From a bacterium (lineage in GTDB: Bacteria > Zhuqueibacterota > Zhuqueibacteria > Oceanimicrobiales > Oceanimicrobiaceae): a stretch of 64,000 nucleotides of DNA. Positions 5,172 to 60,357 of the stretch are shown here, in pieces (within the stretch, counting starts at the first letter, position 1; each line of letters opens with the position of its first letter). Location of the stretch: the NCBI GenBank assembly GCA_037446635.1, contig JBBIIG010000010.1, positions 1 to 64,000 of the forward strand. Direction: 5' to 3'. Both the position numbers and the translations under genes were made by a program. The notes beneath the pieces are model-generated. The model was not told where the DNA came from, did not search any database, and saw only the letters and a program-made list of their open reading frames with translations.

Positions 5172-6179
5172 ATGTTTATGAAAACGATTTACGATTTTTG
5201 CATCGCTTCGGATTTCGAGTACGACGCGGATTTCATCAATATAATGGAAGCGGCCGCGCGTGAACAGGGGATAACCACGTTCGTCGTCTGGCCGCACAAC
5301 CTCAATGAAACCCTGCGCCGGCTGCGCCGAGAGGAAATCGGCTTCAACTTTTTTTATGATCGCGCCTCGGATTCTTCTCCGAACTTCCTGAAGCTAAATT
5401 CGTTTCTGGTTGAGCGCGGAATCCCGCTGCTGGACCCCATCGCCAAACTGCAGCGCGCCTCGGACAAAGCGACCATGCACCTGGAATTTATTTCCAAAGG
5501 CCTGATGACGCCCTACACCATCATCATCCCGCCCTACGACAAGTTCGAGCATATTTTTCTTTCGGTTTCGGACCTCGCTAAATTGGGACGGGCGTTTTTT
5601 ATCAAACCGGCCAACACCACCGGCGGCGGCATCGGCGTGGTCTCGGGCGCCGAGTCGCTGCAGGACGTGCTGCAGGCGCGCAAAAAATTCCAGGGCGACA
5701 AATACCTGCTGCAGGAAAAGGTGGCGCCGCAGGAGAAAGAAGGCCGGCGGTTCTGGTTTCGCGGATTTTACGCTTGCGGGCGGGTCGAGTTTACCTGGTG
5801 GAATGATCTCACTCATATTTACGAGATTTTAGAGAAGGAAGAGATTCAGAAATTCCGGCTGCGGCCGCTGTTCAAAATCATTCGCGAGATTGCGCAGATT
5901 TCCGGCTTGCAGTTTTTTTCCACCGAGATTGCATTGAACCCGGAAGGCAAGTTTATCATTGTCGATTACGTCAACGAGATTTGCGACATGCGCATCAAGT
6001 CGCTCCACGCCGACGGCGTGCCCGACGCCGTGGTCCGCAGCGTGGCGCGCAGCATCGTCGCGTACGTGAAAAAGAATGTTCAATTGCGAGCCGATGGCAG
6101 TTTCCAGGCCGCGCGCGCCACTGGGGTAACAACCCCTCAAAGAGCAGAGATCGAAAAGCTGCGAACCCGTGAACTATGA
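5172..6179 (+). CDS. ATP-grasp fold protein of unknown specificity
   Basis: ASDKATMH, FFIKPANTTGGGIGV, YLLQEKV and VDYVNEICD ATP-grasp-like motifs; start may be ATG 5172 or 5178. Confidence 0.7.
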   Translation: MFMKTIYDFCIASDFEYDADFINIMEAAAREQGITTFVVWPHNLNETLRRLRREEIGFNFFYDRASDSSPNFLKLNSFLVERGIPLLDPIAKLQRASDKATMHLEFISKGLMTPYTIIIPPYDKFEHIFLSVSDLAKLGRAFFIKPANTTGGGIGVVSGAESLQDVLQARKKFQGDKYLLQEKVAPQEKEGRRFWFRGFYACGRVEFTWWNDLTHIYEILEKEEIQKFRLRPLFKIIREIAQISGLQFFSTEIALNPEGKFIIVDYVNEICDMRIKSLHADGVPDAVVRSVARSIVAYVKKNVQLRADGSFQAARATGVTTPQRAEIEKLRTREL

Positions 6180-7606
6180 AATCGATTTTGGTTGTTTCAA
6201 AACATCCTGCGGCGTTTGAGGTCATTCAAAAATGCTTTAGTCAGGAATACGCCGTGGTACAGCAATCCTCGCGCGAAGATGCAATGGAACGCTTTCACAT
6301 TCAGCGCTTCGAATACACCTTTATCGATATCGAATTGCTGCGCGCCGCCGGCTCGGACAATGATTATAAAAAAGCCCTGCAGCCGTTCTGGCGAGTGTAT
6401 CCCACCGCCGATATCATTATTTTGACGCCGCAGGAACTCATCCGCGAAGCCGTGAATGCGGTGAAGGCCGGCGCCAGCAACTACCTGACCTACCCCTTGA
6501 ACCCGGATGAAGTGAAATACGTGGTGGACAGCCTCGGTGAGTTTGTGCGTTTTCAGGGCGAGCTCGATTACCTGCGCAACCGTTTCTGGCGCAGTGAATC
6601 GCATGATATTCTTCGCACCAACAGCCCGCTGATGAAAGCTGTTTTTGAAAAAGTGCAGGCGGTGGCGCAGACCGAAAGCTCCGTTCTTTTGACCGGCGAA
6701 ACCGGCACCGGCAAAGGGGTGATCGCAAAATTGATTCATCAACACAGCAGCCGCAGCCGCAACCAGTACATCAGCGTGCATTGCGGCGCCATCACCGACA
6801 CCCTGCTGGAAAGCGAATTGTTCGGCCACGAAAAAGGCGCGTTCACCGGCGCCGTCCGCCGCAAGCTGGGCAAATTTGAAATTGCGCGCGGCGGCACGAT
6901 TTTGTTAGACGAAATCGGCACCATCTCTTCCGCGATGCAGATCAAGCTGCTGCAGATTTTGCAGGATAAAACCTTCAGCCGCGTGGGCGGCGAGGAAATT
7001 CTCGAAGCGGACGTTCGCATCATCGCCGCCACCAACGCCGATTTGAAAGCGATGTCCGAGCGCGGAGAATTTCGCCGCGATTTGTATTACCGGCTGAACG
7101 TGTTTCCGATCGAGATTCCGCCGCTGCGTGAGCGCATCGAGGACATTCCGCTGCTGGTCGAAGTGTTTCTTAAGCGCCTGAACAAATTCCACTCGCGCAA
7201 TTTGGTCGATATTCATCCGGAGGTATTGAAGGCATTCGAGCGCTATTCTTGGCCGGGCAATATTCGCGAGCTGGAAAATCTTATCGAGCGCGCTTCCATT
7301 CTCGAAACTTCCTCGGTGTTGACGCCCAACAGTTTTCCGATGGAACTGTTTATCGATCAGATCGCGAAGCCCGAAAATTCAATCGATATCTCCCGGCCGC
7401 TGCACGAAGTTCGCCGCCGCGGCATCGAACAGATCGAGCGCCAATATTTGCGGGAATTGTTGAAGAAAAATAATGGCCGCATCGCGCCAACGGCCGTGGC
7501 TGCGGGCATCAGCGTGCGGCAGTTGCACAAGTTGATGACCCGCTACGAGCTTCAAAAGGAGGATTTTAAAATCCGAGCCGGCTCGGCCATTGAATCGGAA
7601 CCGTGA
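6176..7606 (+). CDS. Sigma-54-dependent transcriptional activator (NtrC-like) with atypical receiver domain
   Basis: GETGTGK Walker A, GAFTGA loop, LLDEIG, WPGNIRELEN, C-terminal Fis-type HTH; ATGA overlap with the upstream gene. Confidence 0.92.
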   Translation: MKSILVVSKHPAAFEVIQKCFSQEYAVVQQSSREDAMERFHIQRFEYTFIDIELLRAAGSDNDYKKALQPFWRVYPTADIIILTPQELIREAVNAVKAGASNYLTYPLNPDEVKYVVDSLGEFVRFQGELDYLRNRFWRSESHDILRTNSPLMKAVFEKVQAVAQTESSVLLTGETGTGKGVIAKLIHQHSSRSRNQYISVHCGAITDTLLESELFGHEKGAFTGAVRRKLGKFEIARGGTILLDEIGTISSAMQIKLLQILQDKTFSRVGGEEILEADVRIIAATNADLKAMSERGEFRRDLYYRLNVFPIEIPPLRERIEDIPLLVEVFLKRLNKFHSRNLVDIHPEVLKAFERYSWPGNIRELENLIERASILETSSVLTPNSFPMELFIDQIAKPENSIDISRPLHEVRRRGIEQIERQYLRELLKKNNGRIAPTAVAAGISVRQLHKLMTRYELQKEDFKIRAGSAIESEP

Positions 7607-7811
7607 GTTCCGATGCGATTAAAATCGGCACGAATAGTTCTACTCTTTTTGTAGGATAACAATATATAGTACTGTCGAACCGATTTTAGTTGAATTTGTA
7701 GCTAAATCTGTTCATAGATGAAAACCAGCGCGGGTTTGAAGGGAGGTTAGTCAAGCTTAAATTTCAAGATTTATCTATGAAAATTCAAAAAATCGGAACT
7801 TTCAGTTCCGA
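7595..7811. promoter_or_regulatory. Three palindromic sites TCGGAAC-N5-GTTCCGA, candidate enhancer (UAS)
   Basis: Perfect copies at 7595-7613 and 7793-7811; degenerate copy TCGGCAC-N5-GTTCTAC at 7625-7643. Confidence 0.6.
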
Positions 7812-7867
7812 AGGATAAAATTCATTCAAACCATCTAACTATTTGTATTTCAAGCTATTTCGCCAAT

Positions 7868-7883
7868 TGGCACGATCATTGTT
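7868..7883 (+). promoter_or_regulatory. Sigma-54 -24/-12 promoter (variant -12 TTGT)
   Basis: TGGCAC-GATCA-TTGTT about 58 nt upstream of the KamA-like ATG, next to a sigma-54 activator gene. Confidence 0.65.
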
Positions 7884-7940: not shown

Positions 7941-9395
7941 ATGAAAGCCCAGATTTTGACGAGCGAATCCGAGGAGCCTCCCAGTAGTCTCAAACGCGTT
8001 GTTAATTTGAGTCCGGCTGGTTTTAGTTCCCACCCCCTCACTGTTGACACCCCGTTCGTCCCTCGTACAAAAAATCCTGTTGAAAATGTCCCGCGCGTTC
8101 AAATCGTCCCCGTAAACGAGCGCCGCAAATCCAATGGCAAGGCCAATGGCACCAGTGCGATTGCGCCGAAAAACGGCGCGGCGGCCGGCGGCGAAACCGC
8201 GGCCTTTGTGATCAGCGAGCGCTCGCGCGCCTTTCGCGATCGCTTCTTTCCGCAGGCCAGCGACGCCGAGTGGAACGACTGGCGCTGGCAGGTGCGCAAT
8301 CGCATCAAAGATTTGGCCGAATTGGAGCGCATCGTGCTACTTTCGGAGGATGAGCGCGAGGCCATTCAGCGCCACACCGGGCCGTTGCCGGTGGGCATCA
8401 ATCCCTACTATGCCAGTTTGCTCGATCCAGACAATCCGATGCAGCCATTGCGCCGCACGGTTGTCATGGTGAAAGACGAATATAAAATCACCCCGGATGA
8501 AGCCGCCGACCCGCTCGGTGAGGACAGCCACACCGTGGTGCCGGGGCTGGTTCATCGCTACCCCGATCGCGTGCTATTTTTGGTCACCGGGTTTTGCACG
8601 GTTTATTGCCGTTACTGCACGCGCTCGCGCATGGTGGGCAACCCCGGCGGCGAGTACCGTTTCAACACCAATCAGTGGGAAGCGGCGCTGCACTACATCG
8701 AAAGCCATCCGGAGATTCGCGATGTGCTGCTCTCCGGCGGCGACCCGCTGACGCTGGCGGATGATCGTCTCGAGTGGTTGCTGTCGCGGCTGCGCCAAAT
8801 CCCCCACGTAGAATTTCTGCGCATCGGTTCGAAGGTGCCGGTGGTGCTGCCGCAGCGCATCACGCCGGAGCTCACGGCGATGTTGAAAAAATATCACCCT
8901 TTGTGGATGAGCGTTCACTTCAATCACCCGGTGGAGCTGACGCCGGAAGTGGCGCAGGCCTGCACGCGGCTGGCGGATGCCGGCATCCCGCTGGGCAGCC
9001 AAACGGTGCTGCTCAAGGGGGTCAACGACGACGTGGAAACCATGAAGCGCCTCAACCAGGGCCTGCTGAAAATTCGCGTGAAGCCGTACTACCTCTACCA
9101 GTGCGATCCGGTGGCCGGCTCGTCGCACTTCCGAACCTCTATTCAAAAAGGATTGGAGATCATCGAAGGCTTGCGCGGCCACACCACCGGCTACGCGGTT
9201 CCCAACTACGTGGTGGACGCCCCGGGCGGCGGCGGCAAAATTCCGCTGCTGCCGGAGTACGTCGTTGGCCGCGACGGCGACGATCTGCTGCTGCGAAATT
9301 ATGAAGGTAAAGTTTACCGCTATCACGATCCGGACGGCAAAGTCGGCTTGAAGCAAAATTTCAACTCGAATGGAAAAAACGGGAAGGTGCAATGA
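7941..9395 (+). CDS. kamA: KamA-family radical SAM/PLP enzyme (lysine 2,3-aminomutase-like)
   Basis: CTVYCRYC SAM motif, LVHRYPDRVL, LLSGGDPL, YLYQCD, VVDAPGGGGK (PLP lysine). Confidence 0.9.
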   Translation: MKAQILTSESEEPPSSLKRVVNLSPAGFSSHPLTVDTPFVPRTKNPVENVPRVQIVPVNERRKSNGKANGTSAIAPKNGAAAGGETAAFVISERSRAFRDRFFPQASDAEWNDWRWQVRNRIKDLAELERIVLLSEDEREAIQRHTGPLPVGINPYYASLLDPDNPMQPLRRTVVMVKDEYKITPDEAADPLGEDSHTVVPGLVHRYPDRVLFLVTGFCTVYCRYCTRSRMVGNPGGEYRFNTNQWEAALHYIESHPEIRDVLLSGGDPLTLADDRLEWLLSRLRQIPHVEFLRIGSKVPVVLPQRITPELTAMLKKYHPLWMSVHFNHPVELTPEVAQACTRLADAGIPLGSQTVLLKGVNDDVETMKRLNQGLLKIRVKPYYLYQCDPVAGSSHFRTSIQKGLEIIEGLRGHTTGYAVPNYVVDAPGGGGKIPLLPEYVVGRDGDDLLLRNYEGKVYRYHDPDGKVGLKQNFNSNGKNGKVQ

Positions 9396-10402
9396 AGATA
9401 GGACTCACCTATGATTTGCGCCAGGATTATCTCGAACTGGGTTACGGCGAAGAAGAAACCGCCGAGTTCGACCGCATCGACACCGTGGAGGCCATCGAGC
9501 GCACGCTGCAGGATCTGGGTTACGAAACCGACCGCGTCGGCAACATCTGGAATTTGACGAAACGTTTAGCCGCCGGCGAGCGCTGGGATTTGGTGTTCAA
9601 CATCGCGGAAGGTTTACGCGGCATCGGGCGGGAGGCGCAAGTTCCCGCTCTACTGGACGCCTACGACATTCCGTACACGTTTTCGGATCCGCTGGTGCTG
9701 GCGCTGACCCTGCACAAAGGGATGACGAAGCGCGTGATTCGCGATCTCGGCATCCCAACGCCGGACTTCGCAGAGGTGAAAACCGAAGCGGACATCGACG
9801 AAGTTGATCTGCCGTTTCCGGTTTTCGCCAAACCCATTGCTGAAGGCACGGGCAAAGGCATCACCTCCGCGTCGAAGATCAGCTCAAAAAAAGAGCTGCT
9901 ATCGGTTTGCAGTCGCCTGCTGCGGGAGTATCGTCAGCCAGTGTTGGTGGAGACGTTTCTGCCGGGACGCGAATTCACCGTCGGCCTCGTGGGCACCGGC
10001 AAACACGCGCGCGTCGTCGGCGTGATGGAGGTGATCCTCAAACCCAATGCCGAGAAGGATGTTTATTCCTATGTCAACAAAGAGCGCTGCGAGGAGTTTG
10101 TCGGCTACTTGCCGGTGAACGATTTGATGGCGAAAAAGGCGCAGGAGGTGGCGCTGACCGCGTGGATTGGCCTGGGCTGCCGCGATGCCGGCCGCATCGA
10201 CTTGCGCGCCGACGCCCACGGTGTCCCCAATTTCATGGAAGTGAATCCGCTGGCCGGCATTCACCCGGAACATTCGGATTTGCCGATTCTCTGTAAGTTG
10301 GTTGGCATCAGCTACCACCAGCTTTTCGAGATGATTATGAACAGTGCGCTCGAACGGGTGCAGGCCAGAGCGTCGGCGCCGGCTCAGGCGGTGGGATTAT
10401 AA
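9392..10402 (+). CDS. D-Ala-D-Ala-ligase-like ATP-grasp amino-acid ligase 1
   Basis: FAKPIAEGTGKGI, ETFLPGREFTVG, GRIDLR, MEVNPLAG; lacks the canonical Ddl N-terminal GGxSxE motif. Confidence 0.85.
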   Translation: MKIGLTYDLRQDYLELGYGEEETAEFDRIDTVEAIERTLQDLGYETDRVGNIWNLTKRLAAGERWDLVFNIAEGLRGIGREAQVPALLDAYDIPYTFSDPLVLALTLHKGMTKRVIRDLGIPTPDFAEVKTEADIDEVDLPFPVFAKPIAEGTGKGITSASKISSKKELLSVCSRLLREYRQPVLVETFLPGREFTVGLVGTGKHARVVGVMEVILKPNAEKDVYSYVNKERCEEFVGYLPVNDLMAKKAQEVALTAWIGLGCRDAGRIDLRADAHGVPNFMEVNPLAGIHPEHSDLPILCKLVGISYHQLFEMIMNSALERVQARASAPAQAVGL

Positions 10403-10403
10403 G

Positions 10404-11399
10404 ATGATGAACGCAGCCATTCTTCACGGTGAAATATCTCCCAACGCCGGCCAGGACGAACAGGACACACTAGTGCAAATGGCAGCAGTGTCCGGCGCGT
10501 TGGCCGAACTGGGTTACTCACCGGCCGCGGTTCCCGTTTCTTTGGATTTGAATAAAGCTGTCGCGTCTCTCAAAAATATCAACCCTAAATTTGTATTCAA
10601 CCTCGTGGAGTCCATTGAAGGCCAGGGGCAGTGGATTCACCTCGCCCCGGCTTTGCTGGATTTTCTGAACCTGCCCTACACCGGCGCCGGCAAAGACGCC
10701 ATTTATTTGACTTCCAACAAACTCCTCGCCAAACATTTTTTGCAGGCCGCCGGAGTGGACACGCCGCCGTGGGCGAGTTTCAAAAAGGTTGCGGCGGAAC
10801 CGGTTTCGTTCGAGCCGCCCTACATCATCAAATCGGTTTGGGAACACGCCTCGATTGGAATGGACGAACGCTCCGTTTTACACGATAAAAGCCAGTTGCC
10901 CGCCGCGCTCGAATCGCGCGTCAAAAAGTTAGGCGGCGAGTGGTTTGTGGAGCAGTACATTCCGGGCCGGGAATTCAATCTCTCTCTTCTGGCGTCCGCT
11001 AAAGCCCCGCAGGTTTTGCCGCCCGCCGAAATTCGTTTTGTTGATTTTCCGGAAGACAAACCCAAGTTAGTGGATTACCGCGCCAAGTGGGACGAGGCTT
11101 CGTTCGAATACCAGCACACGGTGCGCAGTTTTGAATTTCCAGCAACCGACGCCAATCTGCTTTTGAAATTGAAAGCAATCGCCACTCAGTGCTGGCATCT
11201 GTTCAATTTGCGCGGTTACGCCCGCGTCGATTTCCGGGTGGACGAAAACGGCCGGCCGTGGGCGCTGGAAGTCAACATCAACCCGTGCATTTCGCCGGAC
11301 AGCGGCTTCGTGGCGGCCGCGGCTCGGGCGGGGTTGAGTTTTGCCGCGGTGATTGAACGCATCGTTGACGACGCGTTGCGTTCCAAAAAAAATCATTGA
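10404..11399 (+). CDS. D-Ala-D-Ala-ligase-like ATP-grasp amino-acid ligase 2
   Basis: IIKSVWEHASIG, EQYIPGREFN, DYRAKW, GYARVDFR, LEVNINP; ATG at 10404 just after the upstream stop. Confidence 0.85.
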   Translation: MMNAAILHGEISPNAGQDEQDTLVQMAAVSGALAELGYSPAAVPVSLDLNKAVASLKNINPKFVFNLVESIEGQGQWIHLAPALLDFLNLPYTGAGKDAIYLTSNKLLAKHFLQAAGVDTPPWASFKKVAAEPVSFEPPYIIKSVWEHASIGMDERSVLHDKSQLPAALESRVKKLGGEWFVEQYIPGREFNLSLLASAKAPQVLPPAEIRFVDFPEDKPKLVDYRAKWDEASFEYQHTVRSFEFPATDANLLLKLKAIATQCWHLFNLRGYARVDFRVDENGRPWALEVNINPCISPDSGFVAAAARAGLSFAAVIERIVDDALRSKKNH

Positions 11400-11477
11400 T
11401 CGCCAGCTTTCTTTTCCCTATTTTACCCCGTTTTTCTTAATCCCTCAATACTTACCGGTAGCGGGCAGGCTCAGTAC

Positions 11478-13214
11478 ATGTTTCGAATTCGGCGTATTTA
11501 CGATTACGTTTTGCCCGGCAACAAGGACGCTATTGCTCAGGTTCAGCATATTCTGAGCGAGCAGTTTTACGGCCTTTCCAGTGACAACATCAGGCAGTTG
11601 CCGGAGCAATTGCGCAATCCGCTCAAATACCGTTTTCGCTCGATTCTATTTGTGGCCGAAGACGCCAAAAACGCGGTCAAAGGTTTTGCGCTGCTGCTTC
11701 ACGCCGCGGATTTGAACTTTTGCTATCTTGATTTCATATCCGCTGCGGAAGACAAAACCGGCCGCGGCATCGGCGGCGCGTTGTATGAACGGGTTCGCGA
11801 AGAAGCGCTGCTGATGAACGCCAGGGGTCTGTTTTTTGAATGTCTGCCCGATGACCCGCGGCTGTGCCCGGATCCCGACATTCGCAAACAAAACGTAGCA
11901 CGGCTGCGGTTTTACGAACGTTTCGGCGCCCGCCCGATCGTCAACACGGCTTATGAAACGCCGTTGAAACCGGGGGAATCGCCGCCCTATCTTGTTTTTG
12001 ATGATCTCGGGCAGAATCGGCCGCTGCGGCGGGGGTCAGTGCGGGCCATCGTGCGCGCCATCCTCGAGCGCAAATACCGCGACGTCTGTCCAACGGAGTA
12101 CATTCAGATGGTGGTGGATTCGTTCAAAGATGATCCGGTCAAATTGCGCGAGCCCAAATTTGTAAAAGAAAAAGTGAAGCCGGTTACCCGAACCAAATCA
12201 GTGGACAAGTTGATTGCGTTGGTGGTGAACGATCACCATACGATTCATCACGTTCGCGAACGCGGCTATGTGGAGTCGCCGGTGCGCATCGATTCCATTT
12301 TAAAAGAGATCCTGCCAACGAATTTGTTCCTGAGAACACTCCCCGGAAGGTTTTCCGAAACTCATATCAAATCCGTACACGACAGTCAGTTTGTGGATTA
12401 CCTGCGGCGGGTGTGTGCCAACGTGCCGCCCAACAAGTCGGTTTATCCGTATGTATTTCCCATTCGCAACGTCGCCCGCATGCCCAAACAATTGCCGATT
12501 CGCGCCGGCTATTATTGCATCGACACCTTCACTCCGCTGAATCACAATGCCTTTCGTGCTGCCAAACGCGCCGTGAATTGTTCCCTCACGGCTGCGAGAG
12601 CTTTGCTGGAAGGCCACCGCCTCGCTTACGCTCTCGTGCGACCGCCAGGTCATCACGCTGAGCGCCGGGTGTTTGGCGGGTTTTGCTATTTCAATTCCGC
12701 CGCCATCGCCGCCAATTATTTATGCGCGTTTGGGAAGGTTGCCATTCTCGATATCGATTATCATCACGGCAATGGCCAGCAAGACATCTTTTATGAACGC
12801 AGCGATGTGCTCACTATCTCCATTCATGGCCACCCCAGTTTCGCGTATCCCTATTTCAGCGGATTTGCAGAAGAGCGCGGCGCCGGCGCGGGCGAAGGGT
12901 TTAATATAAATTTCCCTTTGCCGGAGAAAATTGCCGTCGCTCAATATCACGCCGCGCTGGCCAAAGCGCTAAAAGAGATTGAAGCGTTTGCCCCGCAATT
13001 TTTGGTGGTGGCCTTAGGATTAGATCCGGCCAAAGGCGACCCCACTGGTTCCTGGAATTTAATTGCGAACGACTTTGAAAAAAGCGGCCGCATGATCGGC
13101 GGCCTGGGATATCCGGTGCTGGTGGTGCAGGAAGGAGGCTACCGGACGCGCTCTCTGGGAGTGAATGCGCGGCATTTTTTCCTGGGTTTGTGGAATGGCG
13201 CCCACCGCAACTGA
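11478..13214 (+). CDS. GNAT acetyltransferase-like domain fused to histone-deacetylase/acetylpolyamine amidohydrolase domain
   Basis: N-terminal TGRGIGGALY...RLRFYERFG; C-terminal RPPGHH, GFCYFN, DIDYHHGNG, GLD..KGDP, QEGGY. Confidence 0.88.
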   Translation: MFRIRRIYDYVLPGNKDAIAQVQHILSEQFYGLSSDNIRQLPEQLRNPLKYRFRSILFVAEDAKNAVKGFALLLHAADLNFCYLDFISAAEDKTGRGIGGALYERVREEALLMNARGLFFECLPDDPRLCPDPDIRKQNVARLRFYERFGARPIVNTAYETPLKPGESPPYLVFDDLGQNRPLRRGSVRAIVRAILERKYRDVCPTEYIQMVVDSFKDDPVKLREPKFVKEKVKPVTRTKSVDKLIALVVNDHHTIHHVRERGYVESPVRIDSILKEILPTNLFLRTLPGRFSETHIKSVHDSQFVDYLRRVCANVPPNKSVYPYVFPIRNVARMPKQLPIRAGYYCIDTFTPLNHNAFRAAKRAVNCSLTAARALLEGHRLAYALVRPPGHHAERRVFGGFCYFNSAAIAANYLCAFGKVAILDIDYHHGNGQQDIFYERSDVLTISIHGHPSFAYPYFSGFAEERGAGAGEGFNINFPLPEKIAVAQYHAALAKALKEIEAFAPQFLVVALGLDPAKGDPTGSWNLIANDFEKSGRMIGGLGYPVLVVQEGGYRTRSLGVNARHFFLGLWNGAHRN

Positions 13215-13243
13215 GCGGGGGCGCTTCATTAATCGCTTGTTAA

Positions 13244-13750
13244 ATGGACCGGTTGAAAAAAAAGCTTGACGATTTGACCTTTCGCGACACCCTCAATCCG
13301 CCGGACACCGAACACGTGCGCGCCATCGTTCAATCCACCGGCTTCTTCTCGCCCGCAGAGGTGGAAATTGCGGTGGAGCTGGCGATCGAGCGGCTGGTGA
13401 AAGGGTTGGACAGCGGCTATCATTTTTTATTTGCCGAACAGAACAACCGCGTCGTGGGCTACAGCTGCTTCGGCCCGATTCCCGGCGCCCAAGCCAGCAT
13501 AGATCTTTATTGGATTGCGGTTCATAATGACTTTCGCGGCGCCGGCATCGGAAAAAAATTAATGGCCGAAAGCGAGCGCGCCATTAAACGACTGGGCGGG
13601 CGGCGGATTTACGTGGAGACCTCTTCGCGCGAGCAGTACCAGCCCACGCGCGCGTTTTACCTCGCGTGCGGCTACCAGCAGGAGGCGCTGCTCAAAGATT
13701 TTTACGCCCCCGGCGATTCGAAAGTGATTTATGTGAAGGCGATTGGCTGA
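13244..13750 (+). CDS. GNAT N-acetyltransferase
   Basis: YWIAVHNDFRGAGIGKKL acetyl-CoA motif A; TRAFYLACGY. Confidence 0.88.
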   Translation: MDRLKKKLDDLTFRDTLNPPDTEHVRAIVQSTGFFSPAEVEIAVELAIERLVKGLDSGYHFLFAEQNNRVVGYSCFGPIPGAQASIDLYWIAVHNDFRGAGIGKKLMAESERAIKRLGGRRIYVETSSREQYQPTRAFYLACGYQQEALLKDFYAPGDSKVIYVKAIG

Positions 13751-58873: not shown

Positions 58874-58907
58874 CTTGATTTATTCATTTTTTTGGAGGAG
58901 TGGAACG

Positions 58908-59453
58908 GTGCAAGTCGCGAAAGAGATTTTTTTTGTCAAAGGGGTGGGCAAGCACAAAGAGAAGCTAACGAGCTTCGAGCTGGCTTTGCGGGATGCTGAA
59001 ATTGCGCAGTTCAATTTGGTGCGTGTGTCCAGCATTTTTCCGCCCTATTGCAAAATAGTTTCTAAAAAAGAGGGATTGCAAAAGCTGAAAGCCGGGCAAA
59101 TTCTTTACGTGGTGATGAGTCAGGCAGAAACCAACGAGCCCCATCGCTTGATTGCCGCGTCGATAGGGATCGCGATTCCCAAAGACCGCGCTCACTACGG
59201 CTATCTTTCGGAGCACCACAGCTACGGCCAGAAGGAGGACTTCGCCGGCGATTACGCCGAAGACCTCGCCGCCAGCATGTTGGCCACCATCCTCGGCGTG
59301 GAATTTGATCCCGATGCCTCGTGGGATCAAAAGAAGGAAATTTGGCGCATCAGCAATGAAATCGTCACCACCCGCAACATCACCCAATCGGCCGTGGGCG
59401 ACAAAAATGGCTTGTGGACGACGGTCATCGCCGGCGCGGTGTTGATTTTTTAG
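58908..59453 (+). CDS. pdaD: Pyruvoyl-dependent arginine decarboxylase
   Basis: SFELALRDA..NLVRVSSIFPP (Ser-Ser cleavage site), GYLSEHH; GGAGGAG RBS before GTG. Confidence 0.9.
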   Translation: MQVAKEIFFVKGVGKHKEKLTSFELALRDAEIAQFNLVRVSSIFPPYCKIVSKKEGLQKLKAGQILYVVMSQAETNEPHRLIAASIGIAIPKDRAHYGYLSEHHSYGQKEDFAGDYAEDLAASMLATILGVEFDPDASWDQKKEIWRISNEIVTTRNITQSAVGDKNGLWTTVIAGAVLIF

Positions 59454-59461
59454 GAGGGCTT

Positions 59462-59476
59462 AACCCTGTCAGGGTT
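59462..59476. repeat. Short REP-like palindrome
   Basis: AACCCTG-T-CAGGGTT. Confidence 0.45.
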
Positions 59477-59490
59477 GAATAGATCAACAT

Positions 59491-60357
59491 ATGCCAAACA
59501 AATCTCACAATTTTTTAGATTTACCGGCCGATCTCAACAACCCCGAAACCGCCAAAACTGTGGTGTTGGGCGTGCCCTACGAAGCCACGACTACTTACGG
59601 AAAGGGTACAGCCAACGGGCCGCAAGCGATCGTCGCGGCCTCGTCGCAGATTGAGTTTTACGACGAAGAATTGGATGCCGAAACCTGCCGTATCGGCATT
59701 GCCACCGATTTGTCGCTGCGGCGCTTCAGCTCCGATCCCGCCAAAGCCGTCCAGCAAATCAGCGGCGCCTGCGAGCGCTGGCTGGCGAAAAAGAAGCTCG
59801 TGGTTGGACTGGGCGGCGAGCACACGGTGACCGTGGGGCTGGTGGCTGCGTTCAAAAAATTCTACCCGAACCTGTCGGTGTTGCAGTTGGATGCCCACAG
59901 CGACCTGCGGAACGAATATCACGGGTCGCCGTTCAACCATGCCTGCGTGATGGCGCGCGTGCAGGAGATGTGCCCGTTCGTGGGTTTGGGCATTCGCAGC
60001 GGGGTGGCCGGCGAGCGCGCGGCGCTGCAGCCGCCTTCCACGGTGATGTACGCCCACGAAATGTATCATCAAAAAAATTGGGCGAAAACGGTTTTGCGAA
60101 AATTGGGCGATCCCGTTTATATCACGATCGATTTGGATTTCTTCGATCCAGCGGCCGTGCCCTCGGTGGGAACGCCGGAGCCGGGCGGCTTTCAGTGGGT
60201 CGAAACGCTGGAATTTTTGAAACAGGTGGTCGAGTCGCGGCAAATTATTGGTTTTGACGTGGTGGAGCTGGCGCCGCGGCCAAACTTTCCGGCGTCCGAT
60301 TTTTTCGCGGCCAAGCTCATTTACAAGCTGCTGGGGTATATTTTCTCCTCAAAATAA
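59491..60357 (+). CDS. speB: Agmatinase
   Basis: GGEH, DAHSD, DLDFFDP, GTPEPGG; adjacent to arginine decarboxylase. Confidence 0.92.
   Translation: MPNKSHNFLDLPADLNNPETAKTVVLGVPYEATTTYGKGTANGPQAIVAASSQIEFYDEELDAETCRIGIATDLSLRRFSSDPAKAVQQISGACERWLAKKKLVVGLGGEHTVTVGLVAAFKKFYPNLSVLQLDAHSDLRNEYHGSPFNHACVMARVQEMCPFVGLGIRSGVAGERAALQPPSTVMYAHEMYHQKNWAKTVLRKLGDPVYITIDLDFFDPAAVPSVGTPEPGGFQWVETLEFLKQVVESRQIIGFDVVELAPRPNFPASDFFAAKLIYKLLGYIFSSK

Follow-up and report, generated by a model that had tools for sequence, protein, structure and literature searches.

Pyrrolysine synthesis by PylB and PylC begins with the rearrangement of lysine by a radical S-adenosylmethionine (SAM) enzyme, after which an ATP-grasp ligase couples the rearranged product with another lysine. 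The available text on the AblA/AblB pathway pairs a lysine 2,3-aminomutase with an acetyltransferase to make N-epsilon-acetyl-beta-lysine, an osmolyte (PMC3543383). Here we describe a locus in a 64,000-nucleotide stretch of bacterial DNA (the window; positions 1 to 64,000 of contig JBBIIG010000010.1, assembly GCA_037446635.1, family Oceanimicrobiaceae), where five consecutive genes encode a KamA-type aminomutase, two Ddl-fold ATP-grasp ligases (DdlA and DdlB), a GNAT–deacetylase fusion and a small GNAT. Their pathway is assembled from known kinds of enzyme and is predicted to yield a small, cationic, acetylated beta-lysine amide, while the leader of kamA is a newly noticed candidate control element.

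A conserved and often fused gene cassette

The locus comprises five co-oriented open reading frames (ORFs), listed here with occurrence counts from a DdlA-based survey of the best 80 loci among at least 551 relatives:

7941–9395, + strand: kamA, a KamA-type radical-SAM/pyridoxal phosphate (PLP) aminomutase of a cassette-specific clade, predicted by sequence comparison to be a lysine 2,3-aminomutase, with about 85 residues of unconserved linker after the leader
9392–10402, + strand: ddlA, a strongly conserved Ddl-fold ATP-grasp ligase with an acidic donor pocket (E25/D27/E73) and S295-D296 at the acceptor site
10404–11399, + strand: ddlB, a second, faster-evolving Ddl-fold ligase with invariant D20, E68 and G300 (counting from the ATG at 10407), elsewhere fused to DdlA or GNAT
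11478–13214, + strand: fusion of a GNAT with a Zn-dependent deacetylase that most resembles acetylpolyamine amidohydrolases; accessory, 27/80 loci
13244–13750, + strand: a small GNAT from the family of PDB 2R7H; core gene, 60/80 loci

These genes form a genuine operon, whose four core members make up a conserved and frequently fused unit. The end of kamA and the start of ddlA share the four nucleotides ATGA, the ddlA stop and ddlB start lie 1 nt apart, and gaps of 78 and 29 nt precede the GNAT–deacetylase gene and the small GNAT gene. Pfam matches run, in gene order, radical SAM with LAM_C, Dala_Dala_lig_C, Dala_Dala_lig_C, GNAT with Hist_deacetyl, and GNAT; coordinates and domains thus bear out an initial annotation, made from the sequence, of five closely spaced co-oriented genes. 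Its remark that no epmA, efp or lysine-fermentation gene is adjacent also held, none being found among the window ORFs scanned.

The 80 loci span Thermodesulfobacteriota, KSB1, Bacteroidota, Planctomycetota, Spirochaetota, Acidobacteriota, Pseudomonadota and other phyla. kamA was present at 74, ddlB at 69, the small GNAT at 60, the fused GNAT domain at 28 and the deacetylase at 27, and several of the misses are contig ends. The 240 longer proteins listed were rich in fusions: DdlA–DdlB (78), GNAT–deacetylase–GNAT (71), DdlB–GNAT (39), KamA–DdlA (16), deacetylase–GNAT (7) and DdlA–DdlB–GNAT (2), the rest being 24 more distant double ligases and three proteins with a GNAT match only. Fused neighbours follow the gene order. 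The co-conservation on which the initial annotation had staked its case was found. Among the neighbours of the cassette (59 neighbour and fusion proteins scanned, mostly from 101 listed), no further gene recurs as a fixed part, and no other biosynthetic, target, cell-wall or polyamine-synthesis gene recurs beside it. A close DdlA was found in none of 30 relatives of the window's genome, so the cassette is patchy; no plasmid match was obtained at E 1e-40. A peptidase of family S58 (DmpA/beta-peptidyl aminopeptidase family; L075:8998-10116, also L025, L030 and L210) lies beside DdlA-only loci and a different Ddl-like fusion; it adjoins three DdlA-only loci and is co-oriented with one of them.

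KamA matched clostridial lysine 2,3-aminomutase (2A5H) with an E-value of 8e-139. The alignment retains the cluster cysteines C219, C223 and C226, R228 (R134 in 2A5H), the PLP lysine K433 (K337), and D389 (D293, in YQCD) and D426 (D330, in VVDAP), so the two lysine-amine-binding acidic residues were rightly called at the outset. Glutamate aminomutases generally replace both of these Asp residues, and the pair is retained in most of the 192 KamA sequences counted. Cassette KamAs, together with two variant loci, share one tree branch with support of 100. Among protein family models, KamA scored 376 bits on the broader TIGR00238 (cut-off 199) and lowest, 277.5, on the EpmB model. Less favourably, its 500 bits on TIGR03820 (lysine 2,3-aminomutase) lie under the cut-off of 525.4, the glutamate and arginine models gave 440 and 435, and nine positions consistently distinguish cassette from non-cassette KamAs. 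Given these three model scores, lysine is the likely substrate, short of certainty, and KamA is likely to be the lysine 2,3-aminomutase of a cassette-specific clade.

Several variants of kamA were also seen. At L001:6587-7956 the gene is seemingly split by a frame change, and a second cassette type (L158-L160 and L163-L167, e.g. L158:2894-5273) pairs kamA with one Ddl-like gene downstream of a sigma-54 regulator. Several second-type KamAs begin MEPASD...QLxLF, which resembles the sliding-clamp-binding motif. The window's genome holds a second, distant KamA-like gene (L217, G000:C47:21203-22528; about 25% identity) with no ligase match adjacent.

Neither ligase has the GGxSxE motif of Ddl, as had been noted from the sequence, and on TIGR01205 they reach 117 and 112 bits against a cut-off of 245.65. 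Structure predictions (pLDDT 94.8 and 96.4) nevertheless found Ddl as the closest fold for both (Z 30.3, root-mean-square deviation 2.8 over 298 aligned residues; Z 33.4, 2.4 over 300), followed for DdlA by LysX/ArgX (Z 25), and the catalytic Lys, Glu, Arg-x-Asp and Glu-x-Asn are invariant in both. In a quick tree of random subsets (21 DdlA and 21 DdlB), housekeeping Ddl, DdlA and DdlB fell on separate branches with support of 99–100; the grouping with housekeeping Ddl that would have spoken against a dedicated pathway was looked for and did not appear. A separate Ddl scoring above the cut-off is encoded elsewhere in 29 of 30 cassette genomes. Sub-cut-off scores, separate clades and this second Ddl rule out a housekeeping or Van-type cell-wall ligase. 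The cassette genomes also hold more Ddl-like families (L208-L210, L212-L215), including fusions of 660–740 aa that adjoin genes resembling, by eye, gamma-glutamyltransferases.

The substrate pockets differ from those of Ddl. In E. coli DdlB, His63 lies at the donor site, while a carboxylate-binding Ser and Leu282 belong to the acceptor site. The donor-site HG of housekeeping Ddl is replaced by E in both cassette ligases, and this Glu for His63, with an extra invariant Asp, suggests a diamino-acid donor. The acceptor-carboxylate Ser is retained in DdlA and followed by an invariant Asp, so that Ser with Asp for Leu282 would suit a basic amino acid as acceptor. The same position is mostly Ala in cassette DdlB and is followed by an invariant Gly, a pair that suggests a larger acceptor.

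The small GNAT matched PDB 2R7H at E 9.5e-56, with the next match at 1.9e-7, and scored weakly on RimI. 2R7H comes from Desulfovibrio alaskensis G20, and Desulfosarcina widdelii and Thermopirellula anaerolimosa are among the database names of fused GNAT members. On the AblB model TIGR03827, no match was found in the window's genome at E 1e-10, and just 5 of 60 small-GNAT family members matched weakly. The deacetylase was closest to acetylpolyamine amidohydrolases (E 1e-73) and aligns the RPPGHH, DxHHGNG and EGGY motifs and the L2-type insertion of the cluster 4 enzymes. It has PTG, in the window protein and the family consensus alike, where characterised polyamine deacetylases have PIS. According to the available text of PMC11532494, acetylpolyamine amidohydrolases also deacetylate lysine peptides. 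Elsewhere, a cassette GNAT is fused to an agmatinase-like domain (L044:11653-13146), and an agmatinase gene lies beside a variant cassette (L172).

The kamA leader motif

Near residue 12, cassette KamA proteins carry an N-terminal acidic-x-P-P-G/S motif, followed by a linker of no conserved sequence that spans 34–98 residues before the core. In the window this element is:

7965–7985, + strand: in-frame kamA leader, residues 9–15 (ESEEPPS, codons ...GAG CCT CCC AGT), a candidate ribosome pause or drop-off element

A loose pattern picked up the motif in 68 of the 72 cassette KamAs that are full length, with Glu in 62 and PP in 63. Among 114 database proteins whose start calls are independent, a strict pattern hit 83, the motif falling at residue 11 or 12 in 61 of these, and many of the 31 misses are near variants such as KPPS. 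A second sample of 70 KamA loci, which came from one phylum, were picked along an identity ranking and partly overlap the first set, gave the motif in 42/42 cassette KamAs versus 3/28 others, two of these three falling in the same KamA clade. Residues 6–15 contain on average 5.2 Asp, Glu or Pro in 55 cassette KamAs and 1.0 in 658 genes of the window's genome, a comparison in which three of the counted residues define the motif itself. The same leader was not found on other genes of this genome. The motif Glu is Lys or Gln in some proteins, and the motif is duplicated in 10 of 42.

Codon usage at the motif is also skewed. Its first Pro is CCT in 55/68 genes, compared with 262/1876 Pro codons (14%) in the gene body and 73/358 (20%) in the linker; in the 5-prime regions of the genome's own genes, the CCT share is 9%. 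The preference persisted after dereplication (38/49), in GC-rich genes (18/23) and in the second sample (35/42). The fourth motif codon is mainly GGT or AGT, and the base preceding CCTCC is nearly always a purine.

An RNA-structural role was not apparent. The leader did not covary with the Shine-Dalgarno region of its own gene (p 0.58) and had no common fold, and its pairing did not differ from that of synonymous resamplings (p 0.97). The lack of covariation, fold and pairing signal rules out a hairpin with that Shine-Dalgarno region. A programmed frameshift to a second product was likewise discarded, the open lengths in the +1 and −1 frames not being conserved. The motif was kept in all 15 KamA–DdlA fusions that have an N-terminus, which argues against docking on DdlA.

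Available portions of the literature offer precedents. CCU and CCC are disfavoured as the first codon of a Pro-Pro pair, are prone to +1 slippage and tune CadC (PMC8129111), and N-terminal stretches rich in Asp, Glu and Pro abort translation in a Mg2+-sensitive manner, with ybeX as an in-frame case (10.1101/2021.02.02.429294; review PMC12856214). As the motif persists in the fusions and both RNA-structure tests were negative, we consider a translational pause or drop-off signal, as judged from these sequence patterns, to have a somewhat better than even chance of being correct. Several points weigh on the other side. The loose pattern was defined on the same data to which it was applied, and variants without PP occur (e.g. 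EPDG, EPLG). The CCT bias is partly regional, since other Pro codons near the motif are CCT in 30/85 cases. Moreover, as far as the accessible text of each source goes, most PPX motifs leave protein levels in E. coli unchanged (PMC4140641) and the E-site codon has a small effect on elongation factor P (EF-P; PMC11514478). If the pause holds, one synonymous change should matter, and the leader may disclose what signal the pathway responds to.

The element could alternatively serve protein docking, holding KamA to DdlB or GNAT, or be an RNA site for a trans-acting partner; we treat this as a tentative minority view. A short motif within a variable linker, its duplication in 10 of 42 proteins and the different N-terminal motif of the second KamA–Ddl clade would suit either role, and CCUCC, nearly always preceded by a purine, resembles an anti-Shine-Dalgarno sequence. 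Such a role fits poorly with the constant spacing from the start codon (61/83 at residue 11 or 12), the selection among synonymous codons, retention of the motif in KamA–DdlA fusions, and the covariation and resampling results (p 0.58 and p 0.97).

The predicted product and the promoter region

In the pathway we propose, KamA would convert L-lysine to beta-lysine. DdlA would use ATP to activate the beta-lysine donor as an acyl phosphate and couple it with a basic amino acid, for instance lysine or another beta-lysine, and DdlB, with its roomier acceptor site, would add a further unit to the DdlA product. The small GNAT (a GNAT is often fused to DdlB) would N-acetylate a free amine and lower the charge, and the GNAT–deacetylase, where present, would render the acetyl cap reversible. 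In this genome, a sigma-54 activator would drive transcription of the operon, and the slow or slip-prone leader codons 12–15 could pause or drop ribosomes and so limit KamA and, by stop-start coupling, the ligases. Such control might act as feedback from the product or as induction when cations are in excess.

Judged from sequence comparison, the probability that the cassette makes an acetylated beta-lysine di- or oligo-amide without the ribosome is about 0.5. The initial annotation had proposed such a ribosome-independent peptide, reversibly acetylated. The co-conserved and fused genes and the ligases' own clades speak for the proposal, with the product still a prediction, and reversibility may apply at the 27 of 80 loci with a deacetylase and not at the remaining majority. 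Against this product stand the absence of any transporter conserved with the cassette and the 11 of 80 DdlA loci that have no adjacent ddlB (some at contig ends), because of which a strict two-step ligase order is not universal; nor can the substrates be fixed from a reading of the pockets.

The alternative that survives best makes a polyamine the acceptor: each ligase would add one beta-lysine to putrescine, spermidine or agmatine, giving a long-chain, polyamine-like cation that the GNAT and deacetylase switch off and on. It is a serious rival, if an unlikely one in our estimation, and draws on the deacetylase's kinship with acetylpolyamine amidohydrolases (E 1e-73), the agmatinase-like GNAT fusion in L044, the agmatinase beside the variant cassette in L172, an arginine decarboxylase and agmatinase-like enzyme in the window at 58875–60357, and the mostly Ala residue of DdlB at the acceptor-carboxylate Ser. 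On the other side, DdlA keeps that Ser, with the role familiar from Ddl, and no polyamine-synthesis gene recurs in the cassette. The deacetylase has PTG and not PIS, and, in the available part of PMC11532494, such enzymes also act on lysine peptides.

Beta-lysylation of a macromolecule is quite improbable, whether the target is a protein, a cell-wall precursor or the acidic KamA tail itself, used like a LysW carrier. The acidic, conserved KamA tail, the LysX/ArgX matches next in line for DdlA (Z 25) and the weak RimI score of the GNAT point towards it. In the opposite direction, the motif Glu is sometimes Lys or Gln, a protein tag would not need codon selection, neither a target nor a cell-wall gene recurs in the neighbourhood, and housekeeping Ddl stands apart. 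The EF-P of this genome (L083:1402-2058, G000:C2) has the loop NPGNW with Asn at its tip, and no EpmA above the cut-off was found in the genome (97% complete), which excludes here the beta-lysylation of EF-P, one of the protein targets that the initial annotation had allowed; of 30 other cassette genomes, 12 already have EpmA. PGN loops also occur in EF-P from the L052 and L037 genomes. Least probable is an aminomutase acting on arginine or another basic amino acid to give a beta-arginine or beta-ornithine amide, for which the 435 bits on the arginine 2,3-aminomutase model, the distinct clade with fixed changes close to the active site and the ureohydrolase fusion in L044 count less than the top score of the lysine model and the amine-binding Asp pair kept in most of the 192 KamAs.

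Returning to the acetylated beta-lysine amide, a more speculative extension, to which we give little credence, is that many anaerobic bacteria make a polyamine-like beta-lysine oligomer on an assembly line of two Ddl-fold ligases, and that the codon-tuned kamA leader is a ribosome-based feedback switch sensing the polycation level by pausing, slippage or drop-off.

Upstream of kamA, the following features were identified:

6176–7606, + strand: sigma-54 enhancer-binding response regulator (Pfam Sigma54_activat, Response_reg, HTH_8), the likely operon activator; accessory, with a match in 11/80 loci, some of them distant
7595–7613, no strand: perfect palindrome TCGGAAC-N5-GTTCCGA, copy 1, a candidate activator site overlapping the regulator stop codon
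7793–7811, no strand: second copy of the same perfect palindrome, roughly 90 nt upstream of the presumed transcription start
7867–7883, + strand: candidate sigma-54 promoter TTGGCACGATCATTGTT, with the −24 GG intact and GT in place of GC at −12

The sigma-54 promoter named at the outset fared partly well. Its −24 box is good, the −12 box has one mismatch (TTGT for TTGC), and the site is weak taken alone because 24 loose matches of this type occur in the genome. The upstream activator gene and the two palindromes support it, these being the only exact copies of TCGGAAC-N5-GTTCCGA in the 4.64 Mb assembly. The initial annotation had named neither the palindromes nor the kamA leader. Similar palindromes lie upstream of kamA at 5/8 loci with a regulator of at least 55% identity and at 5/96 others, in a comparison that includes non-independent kin and some loci whose short length could hide a regulator. 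A sigma-54-like match is uncommon at related loci (7/104). A small protein without a Pfam match is encoded near kamA at L073:5889-6266 and 17 other loci of Desulfobacterota type, often those with the regulator or palindrome; it was not found in the window's genome.

The ORF at 5172–6179, which overlaps the start of the sigma-54 regulator, is ATP-grasp-like, with a weak RimK match and unnamed Atlas clusters. Its homologue (48%) lies upstream of kamA in L002 only, and presence at 1/80 loci rules it out as a core part. Farther away, the arginine decarboxylase at 58875–60357 is of the pyruvoyl type and forms, with the agmatinase-like gene, a putrescine route directly after pyrB-pyrC-like genes.

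Comparison with known systems

No published description of the cassette or its product was found in the accessible text of the literature, including PMC3543383, PMC12316311 and PMC4045070, with subscription papers and supplements outside the scope of the search. A widespread, patchy cassette of this kind points to an unknown metabolite of anaerobes, and its two uncharacterised Ddl-fold ligase families may build beta-amino-acid peptides.

Each component has a recognisable relative. The small GNAT belongs to the same GNAT family as PDB 2R7H, whose name (putative D-alanine N-acetyltransferase) is a putative label only; the one paper found citing that code appears to concern another protein. The deacetylase shares RPPGHH, DxHHGNG, EGGY and the L2-type insertion with ApaH cluster 4, as presented in the available text of PMC11532494, and differs in its N-terminal GNAT fusion and in PTG replacing PIS. 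DdlA and DdlB have the fold and catalytic residues of Ddl/Van ligases, from which they are set apart by the missing GGxSxE, scores of 112–117 against 245.65, separate clades and altered donor and acceptor pockets. EpmA/EpmB also obtains beta-lysine from a KamA homologue, whereas the cassette has no EpmA-type ligase and the EF-P of this genome lacks a loop lysine, on which grounds, the tip Asn and the missing EpmA, EF-P modification was rejected for this genome.

For the leader, the nearest parallels, in the accessible literature, are MgtL (EPDP), ybeX/corC and the CCU-CCC-CCU of CadC, with which it shares acidic residues and Pro within the first 30 codons, and slow Pro codons. The candidate kamA leader differs in being in frame with an enzyme and conserved across phyla at a fixed codon position.

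As a pathway, the cassette resembles AblA/AblB in combining an aminomutase of the lysine 2,3 type with an acetyltransferase, yet its GNAT is not AblB and two ligases are added. AblAB identity was ruled out by the lack of a TIGR03827 match in the window's genome and the few, weak matches among small-GNAT family members. A separate ablB occurs elsewhere in 6 of 31 cassette genomes, in one of which (G005) it lies beside a different kamA. The cassette ligases match PylC (4FFL) only distantly in fold (Z 18.7–18.8, 15–18% identity), and the cassette departs from PylB/PylC in using a KamA-family mutase and acetylation in place of cyclisation; even so, PylB/PylC is the system whose logic comes nearest to that of KamA and its ligases.

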